The notes below the pieces were generated by a model, which searched no databases, was not told the DNA's origin, and saw nothing but the letters and a program-made list of their open reading frames with translations. DNA of 64,000 nt from Heptranchias perlo (taxonomy: Eukaryota). The position numbers were made by a program, and so were the translations under genes. The stretch is taken from the NCBI RefSeq assembly GCF_035084215.1, contig NC_090359.1, forward strand, positions 20,832,001 to 20,896,000. Reading direction: 5' to 3'. This document shows positions 2,138-34,256 of the stretch, piece after piece; within the stretch, counting starts at the first letter, position 1, and the number at the start of each line of letters is the position of its first letter.

Positions 2138-4967
2138 CTAGTTGAACTGTGTTTGCTTGTGTTTCCTGTACAGGAACAAGGCGATCAAAGAAGCAGAGAT
2201 CAGAGAGACAGCGCTCACAGTCAGGGCCAAAATCAGGACCACCTCAGACTCCACACCTAAAAAGCAACAAGAAACCAATGGTTAGAGAAGGAAATACTGA
2301 GGGGAAAATGGAAACTAGCAGTCGGCCAACTCACCACCTGGAGACCTCTCCTGCATCCTTTGCTCAACCTCATTAAGGGGCTCAGTTGCCAGGTCTGTCA
2401 CATCAGGATCCAGAATGACCAGGGGTCCAAGTGAGGCCTCACCCTCCCACTTCAATTCAGCATCACTCTCTGCAATATCAAACATTCCAGTTAGAGAGGG
2501 TAAAGGGGGACCTCCAACATAGAGAGGATCAATGTCCTACCAGGTCCAGATACAAGATCCCTCCTTCCTCTGGAATCAAATCGGAATTCCCTCGTGACAC
2601 TGCAGTTGTCCAGATGACAACAGGCACATACATCATTGGTCGATTCTTCCAATGGGGTCCAGCTAAACCAGAGAATCAGTTTATCAACCAGGTTGTGCAT
2701 CACTTCACACAACACATCCCCGTGGGAGAAAGGGAACTTACACATTCTGCATCTTGTGGAAAGTACAAGCTTTGTTCATGGAATCTCTCCGATCCACTGC
2801 AGCAACTTTCAGGTGACAGGTGATGAAAATCTGAGGGACACATTCAATACAAGTTGTTATTCAGTGACTCCCCTCCCAACATGGGGAACCCAATGATCGG
2901 CTTCCTCTTACCAGGGAACGGTCATCTCCAAAGAAACGGAACGCATCCAGGTCAAACTGGAGTTTGTCCAGCTCACGTTCATCTCTGGGCAACACAAAGG
3001 TTGAAAAGGAGTCCTCGGCTTTGCTGTCCAGGAGGCAACTGAAGAGTCAAAAAAAAAGGGCCATGAAGTGAATCAAGTGAAGCCATTGAGAGGAGAGCAG
3101 CTGGAGAAAGCAGAGAGCTCCTTACCCATTGTAGTCAATGATGTTGTATCTTGGGGTGGAATCCTTGTCTGGGCTCAATGTAGCTGCACAGCTGTCAATG
3201 TAGAGCTTCAGGGGCATGTGGTTGGTCATTGAAACAGAGGCCTCAATGTGAATGAGGTCACCCAGGTAGTAGACAGTCGAGGTGCGCTCTGTAAGCCAAT
3301 CATCTGATGAACAAGAGTTGGAGTCAGTGGGTGTAACTCCCATTGGACAACGACAGGAAAGTCCTCCCCGTCCACCCATCACATACCATTCATTAGACGC
3401 AGTGAGAATGACAGAAGCCCTTCTCCAGACTTGGTCGAGCTGAATGGGATCCAGGTGGGCTTGATGGGGTTACTGCTCACATTGCCCTTCCTGGAAAGGA
3501 CAGTGGACTCATTTTAGGATAAGTTCAGAGAACTACAGCAGCTGTAGATCAGATTTGCGACAGAGTAAAGATTCTTACCTCAAATAGTGGCACTGGATGG
3601 GAATGACAGCTCCATTCGTTCTCACAATGACTGATCCACCAGCATTTGGGGTGTGGTTCAGGTGGGTGGTGTAGACCAGGAAATCTCCAGCCATCTGAAA
3701 GACATCAGGTGAAGGAATGAAGAGCTGGTCTCATTGGACAAAAGCTATTTCTGGTCATTTTCCTGCCCTGTTAAGCAGCAGTTTGAGGGGTTTCAGTTGC
3801 TCCCCAATGACACATAATTGAAGCAGCTCCACCATTGAGTGAAGTTGCCTGGAGCAGCCTCTGTTACTCTGCTCAGTCCACCTTCTATTACAGGGGACTT
3901 CAGGCCTGCAGTCAGAAACCCTGAAATGATTTGGCTCGGCCAGGTTAGATGAGAATTCTACCCTATATAGAATAGAGCTTCCACCGTAAGGGGCTTCAAT
4001 TGACCCCTGGGATGGAGCACTAAACACAACATCACTTTTAAACCTCATCTGTGTCCGTGGAATCACGGAGGGGGTCGGCAGGTCTAAGAACCAAAAGTGG
4101 AGTTCCCCTTTAATACATTGTAGCCCAATTATCCCACTAGTTTAGTCTTTCAAGAGAAGTCCCAACAGGTTCGACAACACTGAACATCCATTGACCTGAA
4201 GTTGAGGCAACAGACCAGAATATCCATGAGAAGGAAAAGGATAAATCTACAGAGGCACAAAAGGAAGGACTTGTTTGGGGAAATGTAGGTGAAGGTGCAA
4301 GGCCAATAGAATTGAAAATCAAAGTTAGAGAATAGGAAAGACCAGTTAAAGAAAGTTGTAGAGTCTTGGAGACAAATTAGAATCTTTTAAAGATAAAAGA
4401 AAAGAGACATGTTAACAAAGTAGTTTCACACAGGGCGATAGTTAACATTGCAAGAACCTGTACAGGGATTGGAGGAAGAGTTCAGGGATCTCCTCAAACT
4501 AAGTGGCTGGAGTTTCACCCGATGTTCATGAGTTCAGAGTGAGGAGTAATCTACACAGGGAAATTGGAGCAAGAGTTGAGGAATCACATTACCTGCAATC
4601 TGCTGCCACATTCATGGAGCCCATAGTCAAAGAGGACAGTGTGGTTCTGAGAGTAGATCCCAGTTGGCCGACAACCTGCTGTCCCCAGGGTCAGGTCAGC
4701 AGCTTTAATCAGGTGCCTGGTTCTAAATAAATCCATGTCTACCCTCACCAGGAGGTTCTGCTCTCCACACTGCACCATCACAGTCTGCAGTGGGGACAGA
4801 CTTCTCCCCTCAGACAGGCTGAAATGGGAACCAAAGGGAGGGGCAGGAGTGGCCTTCTCAATGTTCCATGGGAAGTCCCTGTTTCTAAACCGCTGCCAAG
4901 TATCAGAGCAACAAACAGCTCCGACCAAAACCAACAGAGAAACCAAACCCTTCACTAGTTGCCCCAT
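2138..4967 (-). CDS. ZP3: Zona pellucida sperm-binding protein 3-like, copy 1 (9 exons, 454 aa)
   Basis: GT-AG exons 4967-4593, 3694-3579, 3490-3387, 3303-3126, 3038-2912, 2830-2742, 2662-2541, 2469-2335 and 2256-2138 join in frame (1365 nt). Signal peptide; ZP-N (VMVQCGE...DLTLG..GC...LHECGS; IPIQCHY); linker [14 protein letters not shown]; ZP-C ([40 protein letters not shown]); furin site RGRR; external hydrophobic patch SLGPLVIL; TM helix; TAG. Confidence 0.95.
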
Positions 4968-5962: not shown

Positions 5963-6069
5963 GTAGTTCGATCAAGTGACTGCTCCTCCTGTGCGATCGG
6001 AGACAGCAAGTGTCAGAAGGCTTGTCCCAGTCTGTATATCACCCCAAACCCCACCCTTAGTGTTTTGTT

Positions 6070-6225: not shown

Positions 6226-6500
6226 GAGAAAATACAATGTGGATTGGTTCACATAAAAAATAGGAGAAGGAGTAGGCCATTCGGCCCAGATAACAGCTTC
6301 TATAATTCTGCGTATGTGTTGGAAGGCTGGAGAAGGCAGGTTATAAATGCACAGCCATCGTTTGTATGTTGTGCTCGAGACTTTGTGCAAACTCTCAGTA
6401 AACCCGGGTGAGACTGTCAGACTTTTCCTTTGTTGTCCCGGCGTCTCTCTGCATTCACAGTAATAAGTTAATATTCACAAGAGTTTGCATACAGGGGACA

Positions 6501-6650
6501 GTGACCGGGCAGTGCCCGGCTCCTGCGGTGACCGGGCAGTGCCCGGCTCCTGCCGTGACCGGGCAGTGCCCGGCTCCTGTAGTGACCGGGCAGTGCCCGG
6601 CTCCTGTAGTGACCGGGCAGTGCCCAGCTCCTGTGGTGACCGGGCAGTCC
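6501..6650. repeat. 27-bp minisatellite, 6 units (last partial)
   Basis: Unit gtgaccgggcagtgcccggctcctgta, containing the inverted repeat ccgggca-g-tgcccgg. Confidence 0.95.
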
Positions 6651-6727
6651 CACTAGGGGGACAAGGACGTGCTCATTATAATTGGTGTGGGTGCTGTGCC
6701 ACCTGCTGTTGGAGACCCAGTACTGTA
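6650..6727. promoter_or_regulatory. Convergent pair of CTCF-like motifs, spacer 1
   Basis: + core CCACTAGGGGGACA 6650-6663. - core ACAGCAGGTGGCAC 6696-6709 with upstream TACAGTACT 9 nt away. Motif match only. Confidence 0.55.
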
Positions 6728-6954
6728 ACTGAATCACAATTGGGCCCCGTCTGTTTCGTGGGTCGTTTGCTCTTTTTATATAAAAGATGTAGATTCCACA
6801 CTGATGTCACATCGAGATGTTTAGCAACTCAAGGGGATGCCTCCTTCGCAGGGGCACTTTTTATTGGAGATACGATTCCTCAGGAATTGTCCCCTTGGAT
6901 TGGAAAATTGCCAATGTCAATCCATTATTGGGAGGAGAGATAATGAGAGACATT

Positions 6955-8160
6955 AATCGACTGGAATCTGTTGTCAGGGGCAGTGACTGAGCACTTGGAT
7001 AAAGATGGAGCCAGCATGGATTGTAAAGGATAAGTCATGTTTAACAAACCCAGTTAAATTTGTTGAGGTCACTAACGGGGTCGATGAGGGAATATCCATG
7101 GATGTTATTTATGTGGAATTCCAGGAGGCATTCGATAGCGTTCCACATAAGAGACTAGTCACAAAAATGAGAAATATCTGGAATTGGAGGCAACCTATTG
7201 ATGAGGGTAGAGAATTGGTTAGGAGACAGGGTGGGGATAATGGGTCCGTACTCAAATTGGCAGGATGTGACCAGTGGTGACCCCCAGGGATCTGTACTGG
7301 GGGCCTCAGCTTTTCACTCTATTTATAACGGACTTGGATGAAGGAATAGAGAGCTGTATGTCCAAGTTTGCTGATGACACTAAGTGAGGTGACACAATAA
7401 TTAGTGTAGACGGGAGCAGAAAGTTTCAAAGGGACATTGATAGATTAAGTGAGTGGGCAAAACCGTGGCAGGTGGAGTTCACCATGGGGGGAGGGTGAGG
7501 TCACCCACTTTACACCCAAGAAAGATCAGAGTATTTTCAAAATGGTGAGAAGCTCGGAACTGTGGAGGAGCAGAGAGATTGAGGGGTCCCTGTACAGGAA
7601 TCACTAAAAGCTAGTGGACAGGTACCAAAAATAATTTAGCAGGCTAAAGGAATGTTGGTCTTTATCTCAAGAGGGATGGAAGTTATGCTACAGTTATATA
7701 AAGCTCTGGTCAGACCCCATTTAAATACTGCGTTCAGTTCTGGGTAGCGAAGCTCAGGAAGGATACTGGAGCTAAAAGGGTTAAGTTATGAGGACAGGTT
7801 GCACAAACTAGGCTTGTATTCCCTTGTCTGCAGAAGGTAAAGGGGTGATTTAATTGAGATGTTTAAGATGATTGAAGGATTTGATGGGGATGAGAGAGAG
7901 AAACTATTCAGACTGGTCAGGAGAGTCCGGAACAAAGGCGCATAACCTTAAAATTAGAACTAGGAAGCACTTCACACAAAGGGGAGTGGAAATCTCGAAT
8001 TTTCTCCCAAAAGCTGGTGAAGGGGATTAATTGAGAATTTCAAAACTGAACAATGGGTGTGTGTTAGGTAAGGGTATTGAGGGTTTATGGAACCAAGGTG
8101 GGTCGATGGGGGTTGACAGATTAGCCATGATCTAATTGAATGGTAGAACATGATCCTATG
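6955..8160 (+). mobile_element. Decayed CR1 LINE 3' region, short-spacer form
   Basis: Remnant RT peptides KSCLTN, DVIYVEFQEAFDSVPHKRL, GSVLG, ISKFADDTK, and CR1 3' tail. Confidence 0.85.
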
Positions 8161-8550
8161 ACAAGACCAGCAAATTAACATCAATTTACAAAATGCTCCC
8201 AATCACTGAGAACTTGGCACAGTTCAGTGGGACTCAACATCCCCACGGTCAGAGGATCAGGGAGACGACAGTCAGGCTGGTCAAACTCACACCACAGATA
8301 CTCAAGACCAGGAGAACCCCTCAAGACCAATAAACATTTCATTAACAATGAACATGGAACATTTGTATAGCTAGTTATTACACTAGTCTTCAGTCAGTAA
8401 CCAAATCAAATTCACTGCAATGAGATTTGTTCCTCATTCAATCACTTTATTGATTATTTGATAACTGGCACTTATTGTCTGTCTCCAGCCCACACAACAT
8501 CCAGTGACAAATGAGCAACCAGCCATTAGAAGATACAAGTAGTCACTGCT

Positions 8551-11395
8551 TTATTGGTCATTTGATAACGAGTTGGACTGGGTTTGCTTGTGTTTCCTGT
8601 ACAGGAACAAGGCGATCAAAGAAGCAGAGATCAGAGAGACAGCGGTCACAGTCAGGGCCAAGATCAGGACCACCTCAGACTCCACACCTAAAAAGCAACA
8701 AGAAACCAATGGTTAGAGAAGGAAATACTGAGGGGAAAATGGAAACGAGCAGTCGGCCAACTCACCACCTGGAGACCTCTCCTGCATCCTTTGCTCAACC
8801 TCATTCAGGGGCTCAGTTGCCAGGTCTGTCACATCAGGATCCAGAATGACCAGGGGTCCAAGTGAGGCCTCACCCTCCCACTTCAATTCAGCATCACTCT
8901 CTGCAATATCAAACATTCCAGTTAGAGGGGGTAAAGGGGGACCTCCAACATAGAGAGGATCAATGTCCTACCAGGTCCAGATACAAGATCCCTCCTTCCT
9001 CTGGAATCAAATCGGAATTCCCTCGTGACACCGCAGTTGCCCAGATGACAACAGGCACATATGTCATTGGTCGATTCTTCCAATGGGATCCAGCTAAACC
9101 AGAGAATCAGTTTATCAACCAGGTTGTGCATCACTTCACACAACACATCCCCGTGGGAGAAAGGGAACTTACACATTCTGCATCTTGTGGAAAGTACAAG
9201 CTTTGTTCATGGAATCTCTCCGATCCACTGCAGCAACTTTCAGGTGACAGGTGATGAAAATCTGAGGGACACATTCAATACAAGTTGTTATTCAGTGACT
9301 CCCCTCCCAACATGGGGAACCCAATGATTGGCTTCCTCTTACCAAGGAACGGTCATCTCCAAAGAAACGGAACGCATCCAGGTCAAACTGGAGTTTGTCC
9401 AGCTCACGTTCATCTCTGGGCAACACAAAGGTTGAAAAGGAGTCCTCGGCTTTGCTGTCCAGGAGGCAACTGAAGATTAAAAAAAAGGGCCATGAAGTGA
9501 ATCAAGTGAAGCCATTGAGAGGAGAGCAGCTGGAGAAAGCAGAGAGCTCCTTACCCATGGTAGTCAATGATGTTGTATCTTGGGGTGGAATCCTTGTCTG
9601 GGCTCAATGTAGCTGCACAGCTGTCAATGTAGAGCTTCAGGGGCATGTGGTTGGTCATTGAAACAGAGGCCTCAATGTGAATGAGGTCACCCAGGTAGTA
9701 GACAGTCGAGGTGCGCTCTGTAAGCCAATCATCTGATGAACAAGAGTTGGAGTCAGTGGGTGTAACTCCCATTGGACAACGACAGGAAAGCCCTCCCCGT
9801 CCACCCATCACATACCATTCATTAGACGCAGTGAGAATGACAGAAGCCCTTCTCCAGACTTGGTCGAGCTGAAGGGGATCCAAGTGGGCTTGATGGGGTT
9901 ACTGCTCACATTGCCCTTCCTGGAAAGGACAGTGGACTCATTTTAGGACAAGTTCAGAGCACTACAGCAGCAGATGATCAGATTTGCAACAGAGTAAAGA
10001 TTCTTACCTCAAATAGTGGCACTGGATGGGAATGACAGCTCCATTAGTTCTCACAATGACTGATCCACCAGCATTTGGGGTGTGGTTCAGGTGGGTGGTG
10101 TAGACCAGGAAATCTCCAGCCATCTGAAAGACATCAGGTGAAGGAATGAAGAGCTGGTCTCATTGGACAAAAGCTATTTCTGGTCATTTTCCTGCCCTGT
10201 TAAGCAGCAGTTTGAGGTGTTTCAGTTGCTCCCCAATGACACATGATTGAAGCAGCTCCACCATTGAGCAAAGTTGCCTGGAGCAGCCTCTGTTACTCTG
10301 CTCAGTCCACCTTCTATTACAGGGGACTTCAGGCCTGCAGTCAGAAACCCTGAAATGATTTGGCTCGGCCAGGTTAGATGAGAATTCTACCCTATATAGA
10401 ATAGAGCTTCCACCGTAAGGGGCTTCAGTTGACCCCTGGGATGGAGCACCAAACACAACATCACTTTTAAACCTCATCTGTGTCCGTGGAATCATGGAGG
10501 GCGTCGGCAGGTCTAAGAACCAAAAGTGGAGTTCCCTTTAATACATTGTAGACCAATTATCCCACTAGTTTAGTCTTTCAAGAGAAGTCCCAACAGGTTC
10601 GACAACACTGAACATCCATTGACCTGAAGTTGAGGCAACAGACCAGAATATCCATGAGAAGGAAAAGGATAAATCTGCAGAGGAACAAAAGGAAGGACTT
10701 GTTTGGGGAAATGTAGGTGAAGGTGCAAGGCCAATAGAATTGAAAATCAAAGTTAGAGAATGGGAAAGACTGGTTAAAGAAAGTTGTAGAGTCTTGGAGA
10801 CAAATTAGAATCTTTTAAAAATAAAAGATAAGAGACATGTCAACAAAGTAGTTTCACACAGGGTGATAGTTAACATGTCAAGAACCTGTACAGGGATTGG
10901 AGGAAGAGTTCAGGGATCTCCTCAAACTAAGTGGCTGGAGTTTCACCCAATGTGAATGAGTTCAGAGTGAGGAGTAATCTACACAGGGAAATTGGAGCAA
11001 GAGTTGAGGAATCACATTACCTGCAATCTGCTGCCACATTCATGGAGCCCATAGTCAAAGAGGACGGTGTGGTTCTGAGAGTAGATCCCAGTTGGCCGAC
11101 AACCTGCTGTCCCCAGGGTCAGGTCAGCAGCTTTAATCAGGTGCCTGGTTCTAAATAAATCCATGTCTACCCTCACCAGCAGGTTCTGCTCTCCACACTG
11201 CACCATCACAGTCTGCAGTGGGGACAGACTTCTCCCCTCAGACAGGCTGAAATGGGAACCAAAGGGAGGGGCAGGAGTGGCCTTCTCAATGTTCCATGGG
11301 AAGTCCCTGTTTCTAAACCGCTGCCAAGTATCAGAGCAACAAACAGCTCCGACCAAAACCAACAGAGAAACCAAACCCTTCACTAGTTGCCCCAT
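8551..11395 (-). CDS. ZP3: ZP3-like, copy 2 (9 exons, 460 aa; stop-loss extension)
   Basis: Exons 11395-11021, 10123-10008, 9919-9816, 9732-9555, 9469-9343, 9261-9173, 9093-8972, 8900-8766, 8687-8551. The usual TAG is TCG (8569-8571), so the ORF reads on to TAA at 8551-8553. Confidence 0.92.
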
Positions 11396-12909
11396 AATAC
11401 AAACTATTACAGCTCAACTGGGAACTGAAGGGAGTCACTGATCCCTTTTATACACAGCCTGTAGTCAGTCACCTGACACCAATTGGATAAACGACCAATA
11501 GACTAATCTCATGACATCTTCCAACAATCTCACTCATTGGTTGGTCTCGCAAAAGATCTTCACACGGAGAGACTGGGTTAGTGATTGGGAGATGATCCAA
11601 TGGAATTAGTCCAGGTTGCAGACAATCTGGGTCTCCTCTTCTTGTGTAACCATCATAAAAACCCCCCGAACAACCAATCTCAACTAAAGTGCCCCCTCCT
11701 GAGAGGGGCTCAAACGATAATCACCCAAATCATAAAAAAACAAAGGAAACTTATCAAATTCAATCATAATACTGAACGATAGGCGCTCCGGTCCCTGCGG
11801 TGCCCACCGGCCGCGGAAAGCCTCGAGCGTACCGGCAAACACCGCGTGCTCCCTCTCCAGGGGTCACCCGGGCGCAGAGAACGCCGCGGAAGAGAGGCAG
11901 ACAGTCGGAGAGACCGTCCCCCCACGGGCCGCGTCCAACCTGGACCTGTGGATGGTCACCTTGGCCAGGCCCAGGAGCAGGCCCACGAGGAGATCCTTCG
12001 ACCTGCCCGCCCCCCCCCTTCCTCACTGGGTGGCCCCAATCCAGAGACTTGAGCACATTATCCAGGCTGACACCCCCAGTGCCCGTACTGAGGGAGTGCT
12101 GCACTGTCGGAGGGGCCGTCTTTCAGTTGAGATGTTAAACGGAGGCCCCTCTCAGGTGGACGTAAAAGATCCCACGCCCTCTATTTCGAAGAAGAGAGAG
12201 GAGTTCTCCCCGTGTCCTGGGCCAATATTTATCACTCAACCATCATCACTAAAACAGATGATCTGGTCATTATCTCATTGCTGTTTGTGGGATCTTGCTG
12301 TGCGCAAATTGGCTGCTGCGTTTCCCACATTACAACAGTGACTGCACTTCAAAATGTACTTCATTGGCTGTAAAACGCTTTGGGAAGCCCTGTAGTTTGA
12401 TCAAGTGACTGCTCCTCCTGTGCGATCGGAGACAGCAAGTGTCAGAAGGCTTGTCCCAGTCTGTATATCCCCCCACACCCCACCCTTAGTATTTTGTTAA
12501 GTGTAGTCACTGTTGTAATGTAGGAAACGCAGCACCCAATTTGCGCACAGCAAGATCCCACAAACAGCAATGTGATAAATGACCAGATAATCTGGACACC
12601 AGAGAGAACTCCCCCGCTCTCCTTCGAAATAGTGTCTGCAGGGGGTCTTGCTGTGAGAAAATACAATGTCGATTGGTTTACATAGAAAATAGGAGCAGGA
12701 GTAGGCCATTCGGCCCAGATAACAGCTTCTATAATTCTGCGTACGTATTGGGAGGCTGGAGAAGGCAGGTTATAAATGCACAGCCATCGTTTGTATGTTG
12801 TGCTCGAGACTTTGTGCAAACTCTCAGTAAACCCGGGTGAGACTGTCAGACTTTTCCTTTGTTGTCCCGGCGTCTCTCTGTATTCACAAGAGTTTTCACA
12901 CAGGGGACA

Positions 12910-13112
12910 GTGCCCAGACAGTGCCCAGCTCCTGTATTGACCGGGCAGTGCCCGGCTCCTGCAGTGACCGGGCAGTGCCCAGCTCGTGTATTGACCGGGC
13001 AGTGCCCAGCTCCTGTAGTGACCGGGCAGTGCCCGGCTCCAGCAGTGACCGGGCAGTGTCCGGCTCCAGCAGTGACCGGGCAGTGCCCGGCTCCTGCAGT
13101 GACCGGGCAGTG
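12910..13112. repeat. 27-bp minisatellite, 8 units
   Basis: Same unit as 6501-6650. Confidence 0.95.
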
Positions 13113-13190
13113 CCACTAGGGGGACAAGGACGTGCTCATTATAATTGGTGTGGGTGCTGTGCCACCTGCTGTTGGTGACCCAGTACTGCA
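13095..13190. promoter_or_regulatory. Convergent pair of CTCF-like motifs with upstream motifs, spacer 2
   Basis: + TGCAGTGAC-9nt-CCACTAGGGGGACA (13095-13126). - TGCAGTACT-9nt-ACAGCAGGTGGCAC (13190-13159). Confidence 0.6.
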
Positions 13191-13417
13191 ACTGAATCAC
13201 AATTGGGCCCCGGCTGTTCAGTGGGTCGTTTGCTCTTTTTATATAAAAGATGTAGATTCTACACTGATGTCACATCGAGATGTTCAGCAACTCAAGGGGG
13301 TGCCTCCTTCCCAGGGGCACTTTTTATTGGAGATAAGATTCCTCAGGAATTGTCCCCTTGGATTGGAAAATTGCCAAAGTCACTCCATTATTGGGAGGAG
13401 AGATAATGAGAGACATT

Positions 13418-14243
13418 AATCGACTGGAATCTGTTGTCAGGGGCAGTGACTGAGCACTTGGATAAAGATGGAGCCAGCATGGATTGTAAAGGATAAGTCA
13501 TGTTTAACAAACCCAGTTAAATTTGTTGAGGTCACTAACGGGGTCGATGAGGGAATATCCATGGATGTTATTTATGTGGAATTCCAGGAGGCATTCGATA
13601 GCGTTCCACATAAGAGACGAGTCACAAAAATGAGAAATATCTGGAATTTGAGGCAACCTATTGATGAGGGTAGAGAATTGGTTAGGAGACAGGGTGGGGA
13701 TAATGGGTCTGTACTCAAATTGGCAGGATGTGACCAGTGGTGTCCCCCAGGGATCTGTACTGGGGCCTCAGCTTTTCACTCTATAACAGACTTGGATGAA
13801 GGAATAGAGAGCTGTATATCCAAGTTTGCTGATGACACTAAGTGAGGTGACACAATAATTAGTGTAGACGGGAGCAGAACGTTTCAAAGGGACATTGATA
13901 GATTAAGTGAGTGGGCAAAACCGTGGCAGGTGGAGTTCACCATGGGGGGAGGGGGAGGTCACCCACTTTACACCCAAGAAAGATCAGAGTATTTTCAAAA
14001 TGGGGAGAAGCTCGGAACTGTGGAGGAGCAGAGAGATTGAGGGGTCCAAGTACAGGAATCACTAAAAGCTAGTGAACAGGTACAAAAATAATTTAGCAGG
14101 CTAAAGGAATGTTGGTCTTTATCTCAAGAAGGCTGGATGTTATGCTACAGTTATATAAAGCTCTGGTCAGTTCTGGGCAGCGAACCTCAGGAAGGATATA
14201 TCGGTCTTGGAGGGGGTGCAGCACAGATTCACCAGAATGATAC
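13418..14243 (+). mobile_element. Decayed CR1 LINE, 5' part (long-spacer form, interrupted by the LINE insertion)
   Basis: Homologous to 6955-7770. Breaks at cagattcaccagaatgatac and resumes at ~16492. Confidence 0.85.
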
Positions 14244-16491
14244 TGTCCATGGCAGTATTGGTAGGAGTGACCACCGCACAGTCCTCGTGGAGACGAAGTC
14301 CTGTCTTCGCACTGAGGACACCATCCAACGTGTTGTGTGGCACTACCGCCGTGCTAAATGGGATAGATTCAGAACAGATCTAGCAGCTCAAAACTGGGCA
14401 TCCATGAGGCGCTGTGGGCCATCAGCAGCAGCAGAATTGTATTCCAGCACAATCTGTAACCTCATGGCCCGTCATATTCCTCATTCTACCATTACCAACA
14501 AGCCAAGGGATCAACCCTGGTTCAATAAGGAGTGTAGAAGAGCATGCCAGGAGCAGCACCAGGCGTACCTAAAAATGAGGTGCCAACCTGGTGAAGCTAC
14601 AACTCAGGACTACATGCATGCTAAACAGCGGAAGCAACATGCTATAGACAGAGCTAAGTGATTCCACAACCAACGGATCAGATCAAAGCTCTGCAGTCCT
14701 GCCACATCCAGTCGTGAATGGTGGTGGACAATTAAACAACTAACAGAAGGAGGAGGCTCTGTAAACATCCCCATCCTCAATGATGGCGGAGTCCAGCACG
14801 TGAGTGCAAAAGACAAGGCTGAAGCATTTGCAACCATCTTCAGCCAGAAGTGTCGAGTGGATAATCCATCTCAGCCTCCTCCCGAGATCCCCACCATCAC
14901 AGAAGCCAGACTTCAGCCAATTCGATTCACTCCACGTGATAACAAGAAACGGCTGAGTGCACTGGATACAGCAAAGTCTATGGGCCCCGACAACATCCCG
15001 GCTGTAGTGCTGAAGACTTGTGCTCCAGAACTAGCCACGCCTCTAACCAATCTGTTCCAGTACAGCTACAACACTGGCATCCACCCGACAATGTGGAAAA
15101 TTGCCCAGGTATGTCCTGTCCACAAAAAGCAGGACAAATCCAATCCGGCCAATTACCGCCCCATCAGTCTACTCTCAATCATCAGCAAAGTGTCATCGAC
15201 AGTGCTATCAAGCGGCACTTACTCGCCAATAACCTGCTCACCGATGCTCAGTTTGGGTTCTGCCAGGACCACTCGGCTCCAGACCTCATTACAGCCGTGG
15301 TCCAAACATGGACAAAAGAGCTGAATTCCAGAGGTGAGGTGAGAGTGACTGCCCTTGACATCAAGGCAGCATTTGACTGAGTGTGGCACCAAGGAGCCCG
15401 AGTAAAATTGAAGTCAATGGGAATTAGGGGGAAAACTCTCCAGTGGCTGGAGTCATACCTAGCACAAAGGAAGATGGTAGTGGTTGTTAGAGGCCAATCA
15501 TCTCAGCCCCAGGACATTGCTGCAGGAGTTCCTCAGGGCAGTGTCCTAGGCCCAACCATATTCAGCTGCTTCATCAATGACCTTCCCTCCATCATAAGGT
15601 CAGAAATGAGGATGTTCGCTGATGATTGCACAGTGTTCAGTTCCATTTGCAACCCCTCAGATAATGAAGCAGTCCGAGCCCGCATGCAGCAAGATCTGGA
15701 CAACATCCAGGCTTGGGCTGATATTTGGCAAGTAACATTCGCTCCAGACAAGGACCATCTCCAACAAGAGAGCATCTAACCACCTCCCCATGACATTCAA
15801 CGGCATTACCATCGCTGAATCCCCCACCGTCAACATCCTGGGGATCATCATTGACCAGAAGCTTAACTGGACCAGCCATATAAATACTGTGGCGACAAGA
15901 GCAGGTCAGAGGCTGGGTATTCTGCGGCGAGTGACTCACCTTGTGACTCTCCAGGGCATTGCCACCATGTACAAGGCACAAGTCAGGAGTGTGATGGAAT
16001 ACTCTCCACTTGCCTGGATGAGTGCAGCTCCAACAACAATCAAGAAGCTCGACACCATCCAGGACAAAGCAGCCCGCTTAATTGGCACCCCATCCACCAC
16101 CCTAAACATTCACTCCCTTCACCACCAGTGCACTGTGGCTGCAGTGTGTACCATCCACAGGATGCACTGCAGCAAATCGGCAGGGGTTCTTCGACAGCAC
16201 CTCCCGAACCCGCGACCTCTACCACCTGGAAGGACATGGGCAGCAGGCACATGGGAACAACACCACCTGCACGTTCCCCTCCAAGTCACACACCATCCTG
16301 ACTTGGAAATATATCGGCTGTTCCTTCATCGTCGCTGGGTCAAAATCCTGGAACTCCCTTCCTAACAGCACTGTGGGAGAACCGTCACCACACGGACTGC
16401 AGCGGTTCAAGAAGGCGGCTCACCACCACCTTCTCAAGGGCAATAAATGCTGGCCTTGCCAGTGATGCCCATGTCTCATGAACAAATAAAA
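14244..16491 (+). mobile_element. 5'-truncated CR1/L2-group LINE (end of APE + RT), ~2.25 kb, nested in CR1
   Basis: GRSDHRTVLV (APE C-terminal SDH motif), PWFN, KSMGPDNIP, GVPQGSVLGP, MFADD. Same lesions as 1-1401. Confidence 0.9.
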
Positions 16492-16875
16492 TGTTAAATT
16501 ATGAGTACAGGCAACATTGACCAGGCTTTTATCCCCTTGTGCGTAGAAAATTAAGGGGTGATCTTGTCAAGACGTCTAAAGGATTTGATGGGGTAGATAT
16601 TTCCTCTGGTGGGGGGAGTCCAGACCAAGGGGGCATAACCTTACAATTAGAGCTAGGCCATTCAGGGGTGATGTCAGGAAGCACTTCTTCACACAAAGGG
16701 GAGTGGAAATCTGGAACTCTCCCAAAAGCTGGTGAAGGGGATTAATTGACAATTTCAAAACTGATCAATAGGTGTGTGTTAGGTAAGGGTATTAAGGGTT
16801 TATGGAACCATGGTGGGTCGATGGGGGTTAAGAGATTAGCCATGATCTAATTGAATGGTAGAACATGATCCTATG
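16492..16875 (+). mobile_element. 3' part of the interrupted CR1
   Basis: gttaaattatgag...ttaaggggtgatctt...ggggcataaccttac...cttcacacaaaggg. Confidence 0.75.
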
Positions 16876-17287
16876 ACAAGACCAGCAAATGAACACAAAC
16901 CAATGATTAAAATGCTCCCAATCACAGAACTTGGCACAGTTCAATGGGACTCAATATCCCCACGGTTAAACGATCAGGGAGCCTGTAGTCAGGCTGGTCA
17001 AACTCACACCACACAGATACTCAAGACCAGGAGAACCCCTCAAGACCAATAAACATTTCATTAACAATGAACATGAAATATTTGTATAGCTAGTTATTAC
17101 ACTAGTCTTAAACAGTAACCAAATGAAATTCACTACAATGAGATTTGTTCCTCATTCAATCACTTTATTGATTATTTGATAACTGGCACTTATTGTCTGT
17201 CTCCAGCCCACACAACATCCAGTGGACAAATGAGCAACCAGCCATTAGAAGATACAAGTAGTCACTGCTTTATTGGTCATTTGATAA

Positions 17288-20114
17288 CTAGTTGAACTGG
17301 GTTTGCTTGTGTTTCCTGTACAGGAACAAGGCGATCAAAGAAGCAGAGATCAGAGAGACAGCGCTCACACTCAGGGCCAGGATCAAGACCACCTCAGACT
17401 CCACACCTAAAAAGCAACAAGTAACCAATGGTTAGAGAAGGAAATACTGAGGGGAAAATGGAAACTAGCAGTCAGCCAACTCACCACCTGGAGACCTCTC
17501 CTGCATCCTTTGCTCAACCTCATTAAGGGGCTCAGTTGCCAGGTCTGTCACATCAGGATCCAGAATGACCAGGGGTCCAAGTGAGGCCTCACCCTCCCAC
17601 TTCAATTCAGCATCACTCTCTGCAATATCAAACATTCCAGTTAGAGAGGGTAAAGGGGGACCTCCAACATAGAGAGGATCAATGTCCTACCAGGTCCAGA
17701 TACAAGATCCCTCCTTCCTCTGGAATCAGGTCGGAATTCCCTCGTGGCACCGCAGTCGTCCAGATGACAACAGGCACATATGTCATTGGTCGATTCTTCC
17801 AATGGGGTCCAGCTAAACCAGAGAATCAGTTTATCAACCAGGTTGTGCATCACTTCACACAACACATCCCCGTGGGAGAAAGGGAACTTACACATTCTGC
17901 ATCTTGTGGAAAGTACAAGCTTTGTTCATGGAATCTCTCCGATCCACTGCAGCAACTTTCAGGTGACAGGTGATGAAAATCTGAGGGACACATTCAATAC
18001 AAGTTGTTATTCAGTGACTCCCCTCCCAACATGGGGAACCCAATGATCGGCTTCCTCTTACCAGGGAACGGTCATCTCCAAAGAAACGGAACGCATCCAG
18101 GTCAAACTGGAGTTTGTCCAGCTCACGTTCATCTCTGGGCAACACAAAGGTTGAAAAGGAGTCCTCGGCTTTGCTGTCCAGGAGGCAACTGAAGATTCAA
18201 AAAAAAGGGCCATGAAGTGAATCAAGTGAAGCCATTGAGAGGAGAGCAGCTGGAGAAAGCAGAGAGCTCCTTACCCATGGTAGTCAATGATGTTGTATCT
18301 TGGGGTGGAATCCTTGTCTGGGCTCAATGTAGCTGCACAGTTGTCAATGTAGAGCTTCAGGGGCATGTGGTTGGTCATTGAAACAGAGGCCTCAATGTGA
18401 ATGAGGTCACCCAGGTAGTAGACAGTCGAGGTGCGCTCTGTAAGCCAGTCATCTGAAGAACAAGAGTTGGAGACAGTGGGTGTAACTCCCATTGGGCAAA
18501 GACAGGAAAGCCCTCCCCGTCCACCCATCACATACCATTCATTAGACGCAGTGAGAATGACAGAAGCCCTTCTCCAGACTTGGTCGAGCTGAATGGGATC
18601 CAGGTGGGCTTGATGGGGTCACTGCTCACATTGCCCTTCCTGGAAAGGACAGTGGAGTCATTTTAGGACAAGTTCAGAGAACGACAGCAGCCGTAGATCA
18701 GATTTGCAACAGAGTAAAGATTCTTACCTCAAATAGTGGCACTGGATGGGAATGACAGCTCCATTAGTTCTCACAATGACTGATCTACCAGCATTTGGGG
18801 TGTGGTTCAGGTGGGTGGTGTAGACCAGGAAATCTCCAGCCATCTGAAAGACATCAGGTGAAGGAATGAAGAGCTGGTCTCATTGGACAAAAGCTATTTC
18901 TGGTCATTTTCCTGCCCTGTTAAGCAGCAGTTTGAGGGGTTTCAGTTGCTCCCCAATGACACATGATTGAAGCAGCTCCACCATTGAGTGAAGTTGCCTG
19001 GAGCAGCCTCTGTTACTCTGCTCAGTCCACCTTCTATTACAGGGGACTTCAGGCCTGCAGTCACAAACCCGGAAATGATTTGGCTCAGCCAGGTTAGATG
19101 AGAATTCTACCCTTTATAGAATAGAGCTTCCACCGTAAGGGGCTTCAATTGACCCCTGGGATGGAGCACTAAACACCACATCACTTTTAAACCTCATTTG
19201 TGTCCGTGGAATCACGGAGGGGGTCGGCAGGTCTAAGAACCAAGTGGAGTTCCCCTTTAATACATTGTAGCCCAATTATCCCACGAGTTTAGTCTTTCAA
19301 GAGAAGTCCCAACAGGTTCGACAACACTGAACATCCATTGACCTGAAGTTGAGGCAACAGACCAGAATATCCATGAGAAGGAAAAGGATAAATCTGCAGA
19401 GGAACAAAAGGAAGGACTTGTTTGGGGAAATGTAGGTGAAGGTGCAAGGCCAATAGAATTGAAAATCAAAGTTAGAGAATGGGAAAGACCAGTTAAAGAA
19501 AGTTGTAGAGTCTTGGAGACAAATTAGAATCTTTTAAAAATAAAAGATAAGAGACATATCAACAAAGTCATTTCACACTGGGTGATAGTTAACATGTCAA
19601 GAACCTGTACAGGGATTGGAGGCAGAGTTCAGGGATCTCCTCAAACTAAGTGGCTGGAGTTTCACCCAATGTGAATGAGTTCAGAGTGAGGAGTAATCTA
19701 CACAGTGAAATTGGAGCAAGAGTTGAGGAATCACATTACCTGCAATCTGCTGCCACATTCATGGAGCCCATAGTCAAAGAGGACACTGTGGTTCTGAGAG
19801 TAGATCCCAGTTGGCCGACAACCTGCTGTCCCCAGGGTCAGGTCAGCAGCTTTAATCAGGTGCCTGGTTCTAAATAAATCCATGTCCACCCTCACCAGGA
19901 GGTTCTGCTCTCCACACTGCACCATCACAGTCTGCAGTGGGGACAGACTTCTCCCCTCAGACAGGCTGAAATGGGAACCAAAGGGAGGGGCAGGAGTGGC
20001 CTTCTCAATGTTCCATGGGAAGTCCCTGTTTCTAAACCGCTGCCAAGTATCAGAGCAACAAACAGCTCCGACCAAAACCAACAGAGAAACCAAACCCTTC
20101 ACTAGTTGCCCCAT
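17288..20114 (-). CDS. ZP3: ZP3-like, copy 3 (9 exons, 454 aa)
   Basis: Exons 20114-19740, 18843-18728, 18639-18536, 18452-18275, 18188-18062, 17980-17892, 17812-17691, 17619-17485, 17406-17288. Splice sites intact, no visible frameshift. Confidence 0.93.
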
Positions 20115-21645
20115 AATACAAACTATTACAGCTCAACTGGGAACTGAAGGGAGTCACTGGTCCCTTTTATACACAACCTGTAGTCAGTCACCTGACACCA
20201 ATTGGATAAACGACCAATAGACTAATCTCATGACATCTTCCAACAATCTCACTCATTGGTTGGTCTCGCAAAAGATCTTCACACGGAGAGACTGGGTTAG
20301 TGATTGGGAGATGATCCAATGGAATTAGTCCAGGTTGCAGACAATCTGGGTCTCCTCTTCTTGTGTAACCATCATAAAAACCCCCCGAACAACCAATCTC
20401 AACTAAAGTGCCCCCTCCTGAGAGGGGCTCAAACGATAATCACCCAAATCATAAAAAAACAAAGGAAACTTATCAAATTCAATCATAATACTGAACGATA
20501 GGCGCTCCGATCCCTGCGGTGCCCACCGGCCGCGGAAAGCCTCGAGCGTACTGGCAAACACCGCGTGCTCCCTCTCCAGGGGTCACCCGGGCGCGGAGAA
20601 CGCCGCGGAAGAGAGGCAGACAGTCGGAGAGACCGTCACCCCACGGGCCGCGTCCAACCTGGACCTGTGGATGGTCACCTTGGCCAGGCCCAGGAGCAGG
20701 CCCACGAGGAGATCCTTCGACCTGCCCACCCCCCCCTTCCTCACTGGGTGGCCCCAATCCAGAGACTTGAGCACATTATCCAGGCTGACACCCCCAGTGC
20801 CTGTACTGAGGGAGTGCTGCACTGTCGGAGGGGCCGTCTTTCTGTTGAGATGTTAAACGGAGGCCCCTCTCAGGTGGACGTAAAAGATCCCACGCCCTCT
20901 ATTTCGAAGAAGAGAGAGGAGTTCTCCCCGTGTCCTGGTCAATATTTATCCCTCAACCATTATCACTAAAACAGATGATCTGGTCATTATCTCATTCTGT
21001 TTGTGGGATCTTGCTGTGCGCAAATTGGCTGCTGCGCTTCCCACATTACAACAGTGACTACACTTCAAAAAGTACTTCATTGGCTGTAAAACGCTTTGGG
21101 AAGTCCTGTAGTTCGATCAAGTGACTGCTCCTCCTGTGCGATCGGAGACAGCAAGTGTCAGAAGGCTTGTCCCAGTCTGTATATCCCCCCACACCCCACC
21201 CTTAGTGTTTTGTTAAGTGTGGTCACTGTTGTAATGTAGGAAACGCAGCACCCAATTTGCGCACAGCAAGATCCCACAAACAGCAATGTGATAAATGACC
21301 AGATAATCTGGACACCAGGGAGAACTCCCCCGCTCTCCTTCAAAATAGTGTCTGCAGGGGGTCTTGCTATGAGAAAATACAATGTGGATTGGTTTACATA
21401 GAAAATAGGAGCAGGGGTAGGCCATTCAGCCCAGATAACAGCTTCTATAATTCTGCGTATGTATTGGGAGGCTGGAGAAGGCAGGTTATAAATGCACAGC
21501 CACCGTTTGTATGTTGTGCTCGAGACTTTGTGCAAACTCTCAGTAAACCCGGGTGAGACTGTCAGACTTTTCCTTTGTTGTCCCGGCGTCTCTCTGTATT
21601 CACGGCAATAAGTTAATATTCACAAGAGTTTTCACACAGGGGACA

Positions 21646-22064
21646 GTGACCGGGCAGTGCCCGGCTCCTGCGGTGACCGGGCGGTGTCCAGCTCCAGTAG
21701 TGACCGGGCAGTGCCCGGCTCCTGTATTGATCGGGCAGTGCCCGGCTCCTGTATTGACCGGGCAGTGCCCAGCTCCTGTAGTGACCGGGCAGTGCCCAGC
21801 TCCTGTAGTGACCGGGCAGTGCCCAGTTCCTGTAGTGACCGGGCAGTGCCCAGCTCCTGTAGTGACCGGGCAGTGCCCAGCTCCTGTAGTGACCGGGCAG
21901 TGCCCAGTTCCTGTAGTGACTGGGCAGTGCCCAGCTCTTGTGGTGACTGGGCAGTGCCCAGTTCCTGTAGTGACCGGGCAGTGCCTGGCTCCAGTAGTGA
22001 CCGGGCAGTGCCCGGCTCCTGTAGTGACCGGGCAGTGCCCAGTTCCTGTAGTGACCGGGCAGTG
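21646..22064. repeat. 27-bp minisatellite, 16 units
   Basis: Same unit; (22051-21646)/27 = 15 intervals. Confidence 0.95.
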
Positions 22065-22142
22065 CCACTCGGGGGACAAGGATGTGCTCATTATAATTGG
22101 TGTGGGTGCTGTGCCACCTGCTGTTGGTGACCCAGTACTGTA
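22065..22142. promoter_or_regulatory. CTCF-like pair, spacer 3 (+ core mutated A>C)
   Basis: + CCACTCGGGGGACA 22065-22078. - ACAGCAGGTGGCAC 22111-22124 with TACAGTACT. Confidence 0.5.
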
Positions 22143-22359
22143 ACTGAATCACAATTGGGCCCCGGCTGTTCAGTGGGTCGTTTGCTCTTTTTATATAAAA
22201 GTTGTAGAATCTACACTGATGTCACATCGAGATGTTTAACAACTCAAGGGGGTGCCTCCTTCCCAGGGGCACTTTTTATTGGAGATAAGATTCCTCAGGA
22301 ATTGTCCCCTTGGATTGGAAAATTGCCAATGTCACTCCATTATTGGGAGGAGAGATAAT

Positions 22360-23979: not shown

Positions 23980-26834
23980 CTAGTTGAACTGGGTTTGCTT
24001 GTGTTTCCTGTACAGGAACAAGGCGATCAAAGAAGCAGAGATCAGAGAGACAGCGGTCACAGTCAGGGCCAAGATCAGGACCACCTCAGACTCCACACCT
24101 AAAAAGCAACAAGAAACCAATGGTGAGTGAAGGAAATACTGAGGGGAAAATGGAAACGAGCAGTCGGCCAACTCACCACCCGGAGACCTCTCCTGCATCC
24201 TTTGCTCAACCTCATTAAGGGGCTCAGTTGCCAGGTCTGTCACATCAGGATCCAGAATGACCAGGGGTCCAAGTGAGGCCTCACCCTCCCACTTCAATTC
24301 AGCATCACTCTCTGCAATATCAAACATTCCAGTTAGAGGGGGTAAAGGGGGACCTCCAACATAGAGAGGATCAATGTCCTACCAGGTCCAGATACAAGAT
24401 CCCTCCTTCCTCTGGAACCAAATCGGAATTCCCTCGTGGCACTGCAGTTGCCCAGATGACAACAGGCACATATATCATTGGTCGATTCTTCCAATGGGGT
24501 CCAGCTAAACCAGAGAATCAGTTTATCAACCAGGTTGTGCATCACTTCACACAACACATCCCCGTGGGAGAAAGGGAACTTACACATTCTGCATCTTGTG
24601 GAAAGTACAAGCTTTGTTCATGGAATCTCTCCGATCCACTGCAGCAACTTTCAGGTGACAGGTGATGAAAATCTGAGGGACACATTCAATACAAGTTGTT
24701 ATTCAGTGACCTCCTCCCAACATGGGGAACCCAATGATCGGCTTCCTCTTACCAGGGAACGGTCATCTCCAAAGAAACGGAACGCATCCAGGTCAAACTG
24801 GAGTTTGTCCAGCTCACGTTCATCTCTGGGCAACACAAAGGTTGAAAAGGAGTCCTCGGCTTTGCTGTCCAGGAGGCAACTGAAGAGTCAAAAAAAAGGG
24901 CCATGAAGTGAATCAAGTGAAGCCATTGAGAGGAGAGCAGCTGGAGAAAGCAGAGAGCTCCTTACCCATGGTAGTCAATGATGTTGTATCTTGGGGTGGA
25001 ATCCTTGTCTGGGCTCAATGTAGCTGCACAGCTGTCAATGTAGAGCTTCAGGGGCATGTGGTTGGTCATTGAAACAGAGGCCTCAATGTGAATGAGGTCA
25101 CCCAGGTAGTAGACAGTCGAGGTGCGCTCTGTAAGCCAATCATCTGAAGAACAAGAGTTGGAGTCAGTGGGTGTAACTCCCATTGGGCAACGACAGGAAA
25201 GCCCTCCCCGTCCACCCATCACATACCATTCATTAGACGCAGTGAGAATGACAGAAGCCCTTCTCCAGACTTGGTCGAGCTGAATGGGATCCAGGTGGGC
25301 TTGATGGGGTTACTGCTCACATTGCCCTTCCTGGAAAGGACAGTGGAGTCATTTTAGGACAAGTTCAGAGAATGACAGCAGCCGTAGATCAGATTTGCGA
25401 CAGAGTAAAGATTCTTACCTCAAATAGTGGCACTGGATGGGAATGACAGCTCCATTAGTTCTCACAATAACTGATCCACCAGCATTTGGGGTGTGGTTCA
25501 GGTGGGTGGTGTAGACCAGGAAATCTCCAGCCATCTGAAAGACATCAGGTGAAGGAATGAAGAGCTGGTCTCATTGGACAAAAGCTATTTCTGGTCATTT
25601 TCCTGCCCTGTTAAGCAGCAGTTTGAGGGGTTTCAGTTGCTCCCCAATGACACATGATTGAAGCAGCTCCACCATTGAGTGAAGTTGCCTGGAGCAGCCT
25701 CTGTTACTCTGCTCAGTCCACCTTCTATTACAGGGGACTTCAGGCCTGCAGTCAGAAACCCTGAAATGATTTGGCTCGGCCAGGTTAGATGAGAATTCTA
25801 CCCTATATAGAATGGATCTTCCACCGTAAGGGGCTTCAATTGACCCCTGGGATGGAGCACTAAACACAACATCACTTTTAAACCTCATCTGTGTCCGTGG
25901 AATCATGGAGGGGGTCGGCAGGTCTAAGAACCAAAAGTAGAGTTCCCTTTAATACATTGTAGCCCAATTATCCCACGAGTTTAGTCTTTCAAGAGAAGTC
26001 CCAACAGGTTCGACAACACTGAACATCCATTGACCTGAAGTTAAGGCAACAGACCAGAATATCCATGAGAAGGAAAAGGATAAATCTACAGAGGCACAAA
26101 AGGAAGGACTTGTTTGGGGAAATGTAGGTGAAGGTGCAAGGCCAATAGAATTGAAAATCAAAGTTAGAGAATGGGAAAGACCAGTTAAAAGAAAGTTGTA
26201 GTGTCCAGGAGACAAATTAGAATCTTTGTTAAATAAAAGATAAGAGACATGTTAACAAAGTAGTTTCACACTGGGTGTGAGTTAACATGTCAAGAACCTG
26301 TACAGGGATTGGAGGAAGAGTTCAGGGATCTCCTCAAACTAAGTGGCTGGAGTTTCACCCAATGTTAATGAGCTCAGAGTGAGGAGTAATCTACACAGGG
26401 AAATTGGAGCAAGAGTTGAGGAATCACATTACCTGCAATCTGCTGCCACATTCATGGAGCCCATAGTCAAAGAGGACGGTGTGGTTCTGAGAGTAGATCC
26501 CAGTTGGCCGACAACCTGCTGTCCCCAGGGTCAGGTCAGCAGCTTTAATCAGGTGCCTGGTTCCAAATAAATCCATGTCTACCCTCACCAGGAGGTTCTG
26601 CTCTCCACACTGCACCATCACAGTCTGCAGTGGGGACAGACTTCTCCCCTCAGACAGGCTGAAATGGGAACCAGAGGGAGGCCCAGGGGGAGGGACTCTC
26701 TGAGGTCCAGGGGTGGGTTTTACTCTTCTCCATGGAAATCTCTGGTCTCTAAACTGTTGCCAAATATCAGAGCAACAAACAGATCCAACTAACAACAGCA
26801 CTGGGACTAAACCCCTCACCACACAATCCCCCAT
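23980..26834 (-). CDS. ZP3: ZP3-like, copy 4 (9 exons, 463 aa; divergent N-terminus)
   Basis: Exons 26834-26433, 25534-25419, 25330-25227, 25143-24966, 24879-24753, 24672-24584, 24504-24383, 24311-24177, 24098-23980. Starts [28 protein letters not shown]...[12 protein letters not shown]. Confidence 0.93.
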
Positions 26835-29345: not shown

Positions 29346-29373
29346 CTTTCCGTGGTTCGAGTTGTAACTCTGC

Positions 29374-29405
29374 TGCAGTACCAGAGCTCCGCCAACGGGA
29401 GGCAC
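29374..29405 (+). promoter_or_regulatory. CTCF-like site with upstream motif
   Basis: TGCAGTACC-9nt-CCAACGGGAGGCAC. Confidence 0.5.
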
Positions 29406-29434
29406 TAGCGCACCTTCCCAGCGACAGGATGAGC

Positions 29435-34112: not shown

Positions 34113-34224
34113 CATTTTTCTTTTAAATAGTCCGCGATCAGCGGATGAATATAAGTTTATTTTTGTGTACAAGATAGTAGCAGAATCGGGCAGAGAGAGA
34201 GAGACTTCAAAAACTCGCTGCAGA

Positions 34225-34256
34225 GCACCATCTACTGGCCAGAGCCTGCAACTGCA
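34225..34256 (-). promoter_or_regulatory. Strong CTCF-like site with upstream motif
   Basis: TGCAGTTGC-AGGCTCTGG-CCAGTAGATGGTGC on the minus strand. Confidence 0.65.

Follow-up and report, generated by a model that had tools for sequence, protein, structure and literature searches.

The stretch of DNA analysed here, hereafter the window, comprises 64,000 nucleotides of Heptranchias perlo (NCBI RefSeq assembly GCF_035084215.1, contig NC_090359.1, positions 20,832,001 to 20,896,000 of the forward strand). Its self-comparison places four minus-strand ZP3-like genes in tandem over the first 27 kb, and in each of three spacers of this array a 27-bp palindromic minisatellite runs directly into a pair of inverted motifs resembling binding sites of the zinc-finger protein CTCF. 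This pair, its minisatellite, and their copying together with the genes are the subject of this report.

Exon 1 of ZP3 copy 2, used as a query, gave 75 protein matches among 317 candidates, almost all of them shark or ray proteins named zona pellucida sperm-binding protein 3-like. The top match was a Heptranchias perlo protein (86% over 98% of the query), and partial models reached 97-100%. ZP-N and ZP-C domains were recognized by Pfam in the copy 2 protein. The reading frame is open in all four copies under one nine-exon model, which was built on copy 2 and has four of its nine exon ends off by 1-2 bases, mutually compensated. The copies are connected in self-comparison by 92-96% identical blocks with indels, over 3.5-6.7 kb; among copies 1-3, variable columns number 31 of 1370 in exons and 55 of 1457 in introns. 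The genes are as follows.

2141..4967, minus strand: ZP3-like gene copy 1, nine exons as in the copy 2 model, open frame (tblastn with P0001/P0004, frame check)
8572..11395, minus strand: ZP3-like gene copy 2 (protein matches, tblastn, frame check, Pfam)
17291..20114, minus strand: ZP3-like gene copy 3 (tblastn, frame check)
23983..26834, minus strand: ZP3-like gene copy 4, with divergent exon 1 5' end and promoter (tblastn, frame check, self-comparison)

The order of elements is the same in all three spacers: promoter, retroelement and short interspersed element (SINE)-like pieces, minisatellite, motif pair, retroelement piece, and the 3' end of the next gene. The retroelement and SINE-like pieces, which we take to belong to the families so named, occur several times in the window by self-comparison. 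The spacers are 96.9-98.2% identical in pairwise comparison, and thus the three motif pairs represent one event and count as one observation: the spacer was duplicated with the ZP3 unit, 6.4-8.7 kb in length. A first-pass annotation of the window had proposed that the pair was amplified with each gene copy. This holds for the three spacers, where the pair is part of the duplicated unit, and fails for copy 4, which has a 5' flank of another kind, in which neither a minisatellite array nor a motif pair was found.

Zinc fingers 3-7 of CTCF are reported to read a core motif and fingers 9-11 an upstream motif over a variable linker (PMC12885311). The two-part motif is described as conserved down to lamprey (PMC5504073), and shark CTCF as having eleven fingers, with a testis-biased CTCFL (PMC7471279). 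We scored cores with counts approximating the JASPAR matrix MA0139.1, and upstream motifs by counting mismatches to the 10-base consensus printed in PMC12885311. By this matrix and upstream scoring, each spacer carries two candidate sites of opposite orientation.

6631..6665, plus strand: weak two-part CTCF-like site of spacer 1, core 6.1 bits, upstream 6/10
13094..13128, plus strand: two-part CTCF-like site of spacer 2, core 9.2 bits, upstream 8/10
22046..22080, plus strand: decayed two-part CTCF-like site of spacer 3, core 3.3 bits, upstream 7/10
6694..6728, minus strand: good two-part CTCF-like site of spacer 1, core 15.5 bits, upstream 6/10, no CpG
13157..13191, minus strand: good two-part CTCF-like site of spacer 2, core 15.5 bits, upstream 7/10, no CpG
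22109..22143, minus strand: good two-part CTCF-like site of spacer 3, core 15.5 bits, upstream 6/10, no CpG

The earlier description of a plus core followed 32 bp further by a minus core was reproduced in every spacer: the plus 14-mers start at 6650, 13113, and 22065, the minus 14-mers span 6696-6709, 13159-13172, and 22111-22124, and the gap is 32 bp between the 14-mers and 28 bp between the 19-mers. The distance of 9 nt between upstream motif and core, annotated in spacer 2 and at 29374 and 34256, was recovered for both plus and minus sites and is equivalent to a 6-bp linker before the 19-bp core. At this linker all six spacer sites match the upstream consensus at 6-8 of 10 positions, versus 0-4 at linkers of 4, 5, and 7 bp. 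The TGCAGT-type upstream motif is present at both sites of spacer 2, as had been stated; at the minus site the TGCAG form is limited to that spacer, spacers 1 and 3 reading TACAG.

The minus core has the same sequence in all three spacers (p 2.6e-6), the minus site contains no CpG, and it is oriented toward the adjacent promoter, 1.7-2.0 kb off; as a motif match we find it convincing. The plus core is mismatched at positions 15-17 and reaches p values of 2.8e-4, 7.2e-5, and 8.3e-4 in spacers 1-3. A core match at p<1e-4 is thus present for the minus site in all three spacers and for the plus core in only one. The plus site has one or two CpGs. In spacer 3 its core shows the previously noted A>C change, which makes a CpG, and in spacer 1 there is an additional G>C change at core position 3.

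The minisatellite comprises 5.5, 7.7, and 15.6 copies of the 27-bp unit according to Tandem Repeats Finder (TRF), or 6, 8, and 16 blocks after phasing, in agreement with the annotated unit numbers. With head-to-tail 27-bp units at 88-95% matches, variable copy number, and interspersed variants, the arrays have the usual marks of a minisatellite, or variable number tandem repeat (VNTR), a class with units of 10-60 bp.

6490..6651, no strand assigned: minisatellite of spacer 1, edge unit plus five full units (TRF, unit alignment)
12899..13114, no strand assigned: minisatellite of spacer 2, edge unit plus seven full units (TRF, unit alignment, folding)
21635..22066, no strand assigned: minisatellite of spacer 3, edge unit plus 15 full units (TRF, unit alignment)

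In frame, the unit consists of six bases, a 10-base segment resembling the upstream motif, the 6-base linker, and the first five core bases, and the rest of the 19-bp plus core is present only after the last unit. The upstream motif, linker, and first five core bases of the plus site are all supplied by this last unit, in line with the annotation, and only the terminal unit can contribute. The terminal variants TGTGGTGAC, TGCAGTGAC, and TGTAGTGAC are distinct in the three spacers, again as annotated. Internal units have no CTCF core, so that the minisatellite copy number cannot add CTCF sites; considered as CTCF sites in their own right they were rejected, the best score being 1.4 bits. The palindromic character ascribed to the unit is real and imperfect (10 of 13 arm positions), and array 2 folds with z=-4.95, none of 200 shuffles being equally low. 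A p53 half-site reading of the unit centre was discarded on inspection, the centre being one base too long for the consensus.

A new observation is that related core-like repeats flank the array, one on either side. In addition to the plus-core flank at the right end, the left edge carries a direct repeat located by flank comparison.

6490..6505 (also 12899-12914 and 21635-21650), plus strand: left-edge core-like direct repeat

The left edge and the right flank are alike at 9-10 of 13 bases, compared with 3-4 of 13 for internal units, and the best core matrix scores of the left-edge repeats are 6.3, 2.0, and 2.0 bits. Such bracketing is expected if slippage within the plus site's upstream half produced the array. 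Haber and Louis reportedly described in 1998 GC-rich minisatellites arising between short direct repeats. The ZP3 arrays resemble minisatellites of that kind in their bracketing repeats, interspersed variants, and change of copy number (6, 8, 16); they differ in that the bracketing repeat coincides with a CTCF-like core. The second new observation concerns the composition of the units. At the two variable bases of the upstream segment, the 27 full units read TA (18), CA (4), TG (2), CG (2), and CC (1); the 10-bp segment has 11 variants, and of the 47 bases that depart from the majority, 27 are transitions at three CG-capable positions, in units that are not independent of each other. The CG/TG/CA/TA variants show the pattern of methyl-CpG decay plus unit exchange, and the consensus-like TGCAG is one product of decay and exchange among several.

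Chance expectation was estimated on an order-3 Markov background of 79 million positions and is given per 128,000 positions. The minus site, core and upstream motif together, is expected 0.03 times in its common form and 0.002 times in the spacer-2 form; for the plus site the respective values are 3.6, 0.04, and 1.9 in spacers 1, 2, and 3. Given a fixed site, the probability that a second one matching the plus site in quality occurs no more than 100 bp away is 0.9%, 0.007%, and 0.5% in spacers 1-3. A composite pattern, written once the sites had been seen, has six matches in the window (four independent sites) against 0.04 expected, and its version with a 5-bp linker has none. Together with the linker scan, these results uphold the annotated two-part CTCF-like geometry as real and above chance. 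For the pair as a whole the excess appears modest to clear, at thresholds set post hoc.

Comparison of the three paralogues detects neither constraint nor its absence on the motifs. Variable columns amount to 46 of 1062 in the background, 0 of 19 in the minus core (P 0.43), 2 of 19 in the plus core (P 0.20), and 2 of the 81 bases around the minus site (P 0.31). Seven public sequencing runs were listed, none of them on record as a chromatin immunoprecipitation or ATAC library; those containing the sequence were four DNA runs of one study, with no RNA run among them. Contigs of these four DNA runs, representing at most one sample, possibly the source of the assembly, were aligned to 13089-13480, an interval that starts in the last repeat unit; contig assembly drops rare variants. 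The four differences listed across this interval include none within either core. At the minus upstream motif the contigs of all four runs have TACAG, which makes the TGCAG form of spacer 2 a minority. The contigs cover the pair at a depth of tens to hundreds and the retroelement piece beside it at more than 60,000, and hence the pair is no high-copy dispersed repeat at 85% likeness. The features of a dispersed transposon or a miniature inverted-repeat transposable element (MITE), namely many copies elsewhere and terminal inverted repeats, were not seen in this contig depth, in the window, where no further copy of the pair occurs, or in the self-palindrome comparison. In the latter the pair, tried as a degenerate palindromic element, scored 22 against a shuffle mean of 21.3 (p 0.42), and this candidate was dropped.

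Both a clustered double CTCF site and a CTCF site in every unit of a tandem array are already known classes. Pugacheva et al. (2015, PMC4562119) describe 2xCTS, two motifs tens of base pairs apart under one peak, with reported motif spacings of 30-40 and 33-58 bp; the spacing of the spacer pair, 28 bp between 19-mers, comes close to this, and the pair is also inverted, as in the palindromic arrangement described there at the TP53 promoter. In contrast, 2xCTS were defined in mammals by chromatin immunoprecipitation and double electrophoretic mobility shifts and are tied to BORIS co-binding and promoters, whereas the spacer pair is known from sequence only and lies between genes, at a distance of 1.7-2.0 kb from the ATG. 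A 2xCTS is required to have two or more motifs at p<1e-4 within 100 bp of a peak summit, and a double conservation peak is a further mark of the class; two motifs at that p value are present in spacer 2 and not in spacers 1 and 3. A BORIS-driven promoter was considered and set aside, the testis bias of shark CTCFL being a poor fit to an egg-coat locus. In the human IL3 insulator (Bowers and Cockerill 2026, PMC12885311), as in the spacer pair, core and upstream motif are combined and each element has two sites; the linker is 5 bp versus 6 bp, and the sites lie ~1.3 kb apart versus 32 bp. The IL3 sites are conserved across mammals and have shown activity, whereas those of the spacer pair are predicted and have an upstream motif within a minisatellite. 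The human 1q23.3 tRNA VNTR (PMC4041453) and DXZ4/Dxz4 (PMC3491370) consist of kilobase units each with a CTCF site, like the ZP3 units, and in mouse Dxz4 monomers the CTCF site lies within an internal VNTR (PMC3491370). CTCF sites lying between tandem duplicates are the subject of a further paper (PMC4046690). In DXZ4/Dxz4 (PMC3491370) and at 1q23.3 the whole site is inside the repeat (a 900-bp VNTR, 1-3 copies), no other non-genic sequence being conserved; in the ZP3 spacer the 27-bp unit repeats only the upstream half and five core bases. No description of a minisatellite built of the CTCF upstream half-site was found in the titles and the beginnings of abstracts of the papers listed, most subscription papers and supplements being outside reach. 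The present evidence thus amounts to a motif-level observation with close precedents and one unusual detail, the minisatellite of the upstream half.

We interpret the pair, with middling confidence, as an asymmetric clustered double CTCF site that was passively copied with the ZP3 unit. The double site would have been present in the ancestral spacer and copied, presumably passively, with each duplication of the unit; the high identity of the spacers and the lack of excess conservation are consistent with this. The minus site would be the main one: because it combines a good core, an upstream motif at the 6-bp linker, and no CpG, it is probably bound by CTCF constitutively. The plus site would be a weaker partner, giving variable help to the minus site. 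The minisatellite may have originated from the plus-site upstream half, between the two core-like direct repeats, and its expansion and contraction could be due to the hairpin-forming palindromic unit, of which only the last copy would be able to serve zinc fingers 9-11. Since the terminal variants come mostly from CpG decay and unit exchange, differences in site strength would be a by-product rather than a selected dial. The likely effect is local nucleosome positioning and weak insulation, exerted in somatic cells and of little consequence for the growing oocyte. In chicken lampbrush oocytes the domains are reported to be CTCF-independent (bioRxiv 10.1101/2025.01.27.635017), and any effect is more likely somatic if the ZP3 genes are oocyte-expressed.

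Several points weigh against this interpretation. The score thresholds were derived from the observed sites, and the scores come from an approximated core matrix and, for the upstream motif, a simple mismatch count. In two of three spacers the plus core lies over p<1e-4, and every ZP3 unit contains unrelated core-only matches of 10.9 and 11.9 bits that outscore it. When the core alone is considered, a 9.2-bit neighbour is found at 35 of 583 simulated strong sites and a 6.1-bit neighbour at 127 of 583. The constraint test, with 19 columns at a 4.3% background, has little power and leaves room for selection; the contigs, which have no core differences, fit both cores being kept in most copies and lend weak support to it.

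Some of the same observations suit the view that the minus site alone is real and that the plus motif is a degenerate G-rich edge of the minisatellite resembling a CTCF core. We hold this to be possible and rather unlikely. The left edge resembles the right flank when both are read in the frame of the repeat, as if an older unit type stood at both ends; the plus core is weak, mismatched at positions 15-17, and changed in two of three spacers; and on core alone the background model predicts, for every 128,000 positions, 78 matches at 6.1 bits and 23 at 9.2 bits. However, an upstream match at the correct linker and nearness to a good site are jointly improbable (0.007-0.9%), weak second motifs were still bound in the five human regions tested in PMC4562119, and the first 12 bases of the plus core are identical to the human IL3 insulator core. 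Another possibility, put forward in the first-pass annotation, is that each ZP3 copy has a selected functional insulator or loop anchor, whose finger 9-11 module is swapped by minisatellite turnover, tuning insulation and expression. It could appeal to the IL3 upstream motif, required for enhancer blocking and altering binding ~3-fold (PMC12885311), to the human 1q23.3 tandem array with CTCF conserved in every unit (PMC4041453), and to the terminal units, distinct in all three spacers. Moreover, a plus site and the minus site belonging to the following spacer enclose a gene convergently, with crossed anchors. The pair within one spacer is not itself a loop, its sites being convergent and 32 bp apart. 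Cohesin is reported to be positioned 3' of the CTCF motif (PMC5006368), and in a convergent pair both cohesin-facing (N-terminal) sides would point into one 32-bp gap. Skate domains obey the CTCF orientation code and their insulation minima tend to have divergent sites (PMC10115646); at the spacers no divergent motifs were seen, the pair being convergent. In addition, no constraint is seen, copy 4 is intact without the pair, the plus core decayed in spacers 1 and 3 independently of the repeat, copy number is irrelevant as internal units have no core, the terminal variants fit CpG decay, the oocyte data from chicken count against it if the ZP3 genes are oocyte-expressed, and recurrence of the pair is accounted for by whole-unit duplication. 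We consider selected tuning improbable.

Equally doubtful in our estimate is that neither motif is bound in vivo and that both are inert relics in methylated, repeat-rich heterochromatin. The CpG-decay pattern does suggest germline methylation of the array, the spacer is mostly retroelement debris, and motif scanning alone was reported to be poor at predicting CTCF sites in Hox clusters (PMC5504073); against this stand the minus site, a statistically strong two-part match free of CpG, and the minus core, unchanged in all three spacers and in the contigs. A further explanation concerns origin and is compatible with the others: the pair might be a remnant of an old CTCF-bearing repeat family, found also at 29389, 34223, 34552-34706, and 37690-37780. 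The likeness of the minus site to the site at 29389 (30 of 44 bases) and the seeding of CTCF sites by repeats reported in lamprey (PMC5504073) speak for it, but a profile of the four arms at 34-38 kb misses the pair, the pair is no significant self-palindrome, and its contig depth is far below that of the neighbouring retroelement piece; we find this origin unlikely. Finally, the multimerised upstream half may act as a reservoir of finger 9-11 modules. Unit exchange and CpG decay would then continually rewrite the last unit and make the plus site alternately weak and strong, and individual copies of the amplified egg-coat gene would gain or lose a two-sided insulator as fast as the repeat turns over. 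This we regard as a long shot.

If the double site is bound, it would provide a cartilaginous-fish example of a clustered CTCF site spread by whole-unit gene duplication, and its natural variants (three terminal units, two core changes, and two minus-site upstream forms) could serve to measure the contribution of the upstream motif to binding and insulation. Tuning, if true, would link minisatellite turnover to chromatin boundaries in a reproductive gene array, and the reservoir, if true, would offer a series of naturally occurring alleles for studying what the upstream motif does, in a lineage whose CTCF grammar is conserved.

Two other two-part CTCF-like sites were found in the window by the same matrix and upstream scoring.

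29373..29407, plus strand: isolated two-part CTCF-like site, lying upstream of copy 4 by 2.5 kb, core 12.1 bits, upstream 9/10
34223..34257, minus strand: strongest two-part CTCF-like site of the window, in a local repeat family, core 19.1 bits, upstream 9/10

At both of them, referred to as 29389 and 34223, the best upstream match is again at the 6-bp linker. The segment 29355-29407 (plus strand) has 30 of 44 bases in common with the spacer minus site at 13157-13202 (minus strand; shuffle p 0.003), 8 of 11 bases upstream of the known upstream motif are shared (P 0.001), and 29389 is the best non-self nhmmer match of the minus site (E 0.07). This likeness reflects either common descent or a longer motif preference. 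The local repeat family consists of four related ~90-bp arms (34223-34340, 34552-34706, 37686-37780), each ending in a CTCF-like or degenerate two-part motif, in two arms with the core one base short. Two of the arms make up an inverted repeat, at 80% over 51 nt per arm and with 53 nt between them, and pairwise similarity reaches well past the motif; the family looks like an old CTCF-bearing MITE-like element. The spacer pair was rejected as a member of it, the arm profile having no match there.

The promoter was described for copy 2 and is alike in copies 1 and 3.

11395..11690, minus strand: promoter of copy 2 (motif scan)

Counted from the ATG, it has a TATA box at -57, an E-box CAGGTG at -80, and five CCAAT-type boxes from -91 to -283. 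TATA, E-box, and CCAAT-type elements have roles in egg-coat promoters. A small G/C hairpin lies ~290 bp upstream of the ATG in copies 1-3 (5259-5290, 11687-11715, 20406-20435) and includes a CTCF core of 9.8-10.9 bits on the minus strand, without an upstream motif. Copy 4 is a mosaic (26620-26916): in the 3' half of exon 1 it hardly differs from the other copies, and the signal-peptide region and promoter are divergent, the latter retaining TATA, an E-box, and one CCAAT box. This suggests gene conversion or an array breakpoint within exon 1. A shark-like ZP3 protein, P0008, is filed under Salmonella enterica on a 1.4-kb contig and is probably contamination. A metagenome scan for ZP3 relatives with flanks gave 274 pattern matches, none of them confirmed.

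Spacer 2 is lengthened by a retroelement insertion, the 3' part of which is found again at window positions 1-1400.

14190..16490, plus strand: broken long interspersed element (LINE)-type insertion with a reverse transcriptase piece (self-comparison, Pfam)

The broken LINE (1-1400; 14190-16490) lies 3' of copies 1 and 3 and not of copies 2 and 4, which gives a hint of a higher-order repeat spanning two genes and ~15.1 kb. This dimer model was not confirmed by the spacers, as spacers 1 and 3 do not group together (96.9% identity versus 97.3-98.2%). In every spacer the first SINE-like piece and an inverted second one form a hairpin with ~100-bp arms (88-92%; 5826-6165, 12255-12594, 20972-21310). 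An Rfam search of 5000-41800 had no match at the motif pair; its only match, MIR5048 at 43.5 bits where the gathering score is 160, falls on the inverted SINE pieces of spacer 2 and was dismissed as a hairpin artefact.

Large satellites detected by TRF have units of 39 bp (x279), 45 bp (x82 or more, continuing beyond the window end), 67 bp (x22), 24 bp (x37), and 29 bp (x21), and occupy 41868-52857, 60297-64000, 32219-33642, and 54036-55524. The 39-bp array has a 17.5-bit CTCF core, without an upstream motif, 70 bp to its right (52930) and a 15.5-bit core 1.1 kb to its left (40737). At 53600-53885 (plus strand), a promoter-like stretch with CCAAT and GC boxes precedes a short first exon that resembles a signal peptide and closes with a GT donor.

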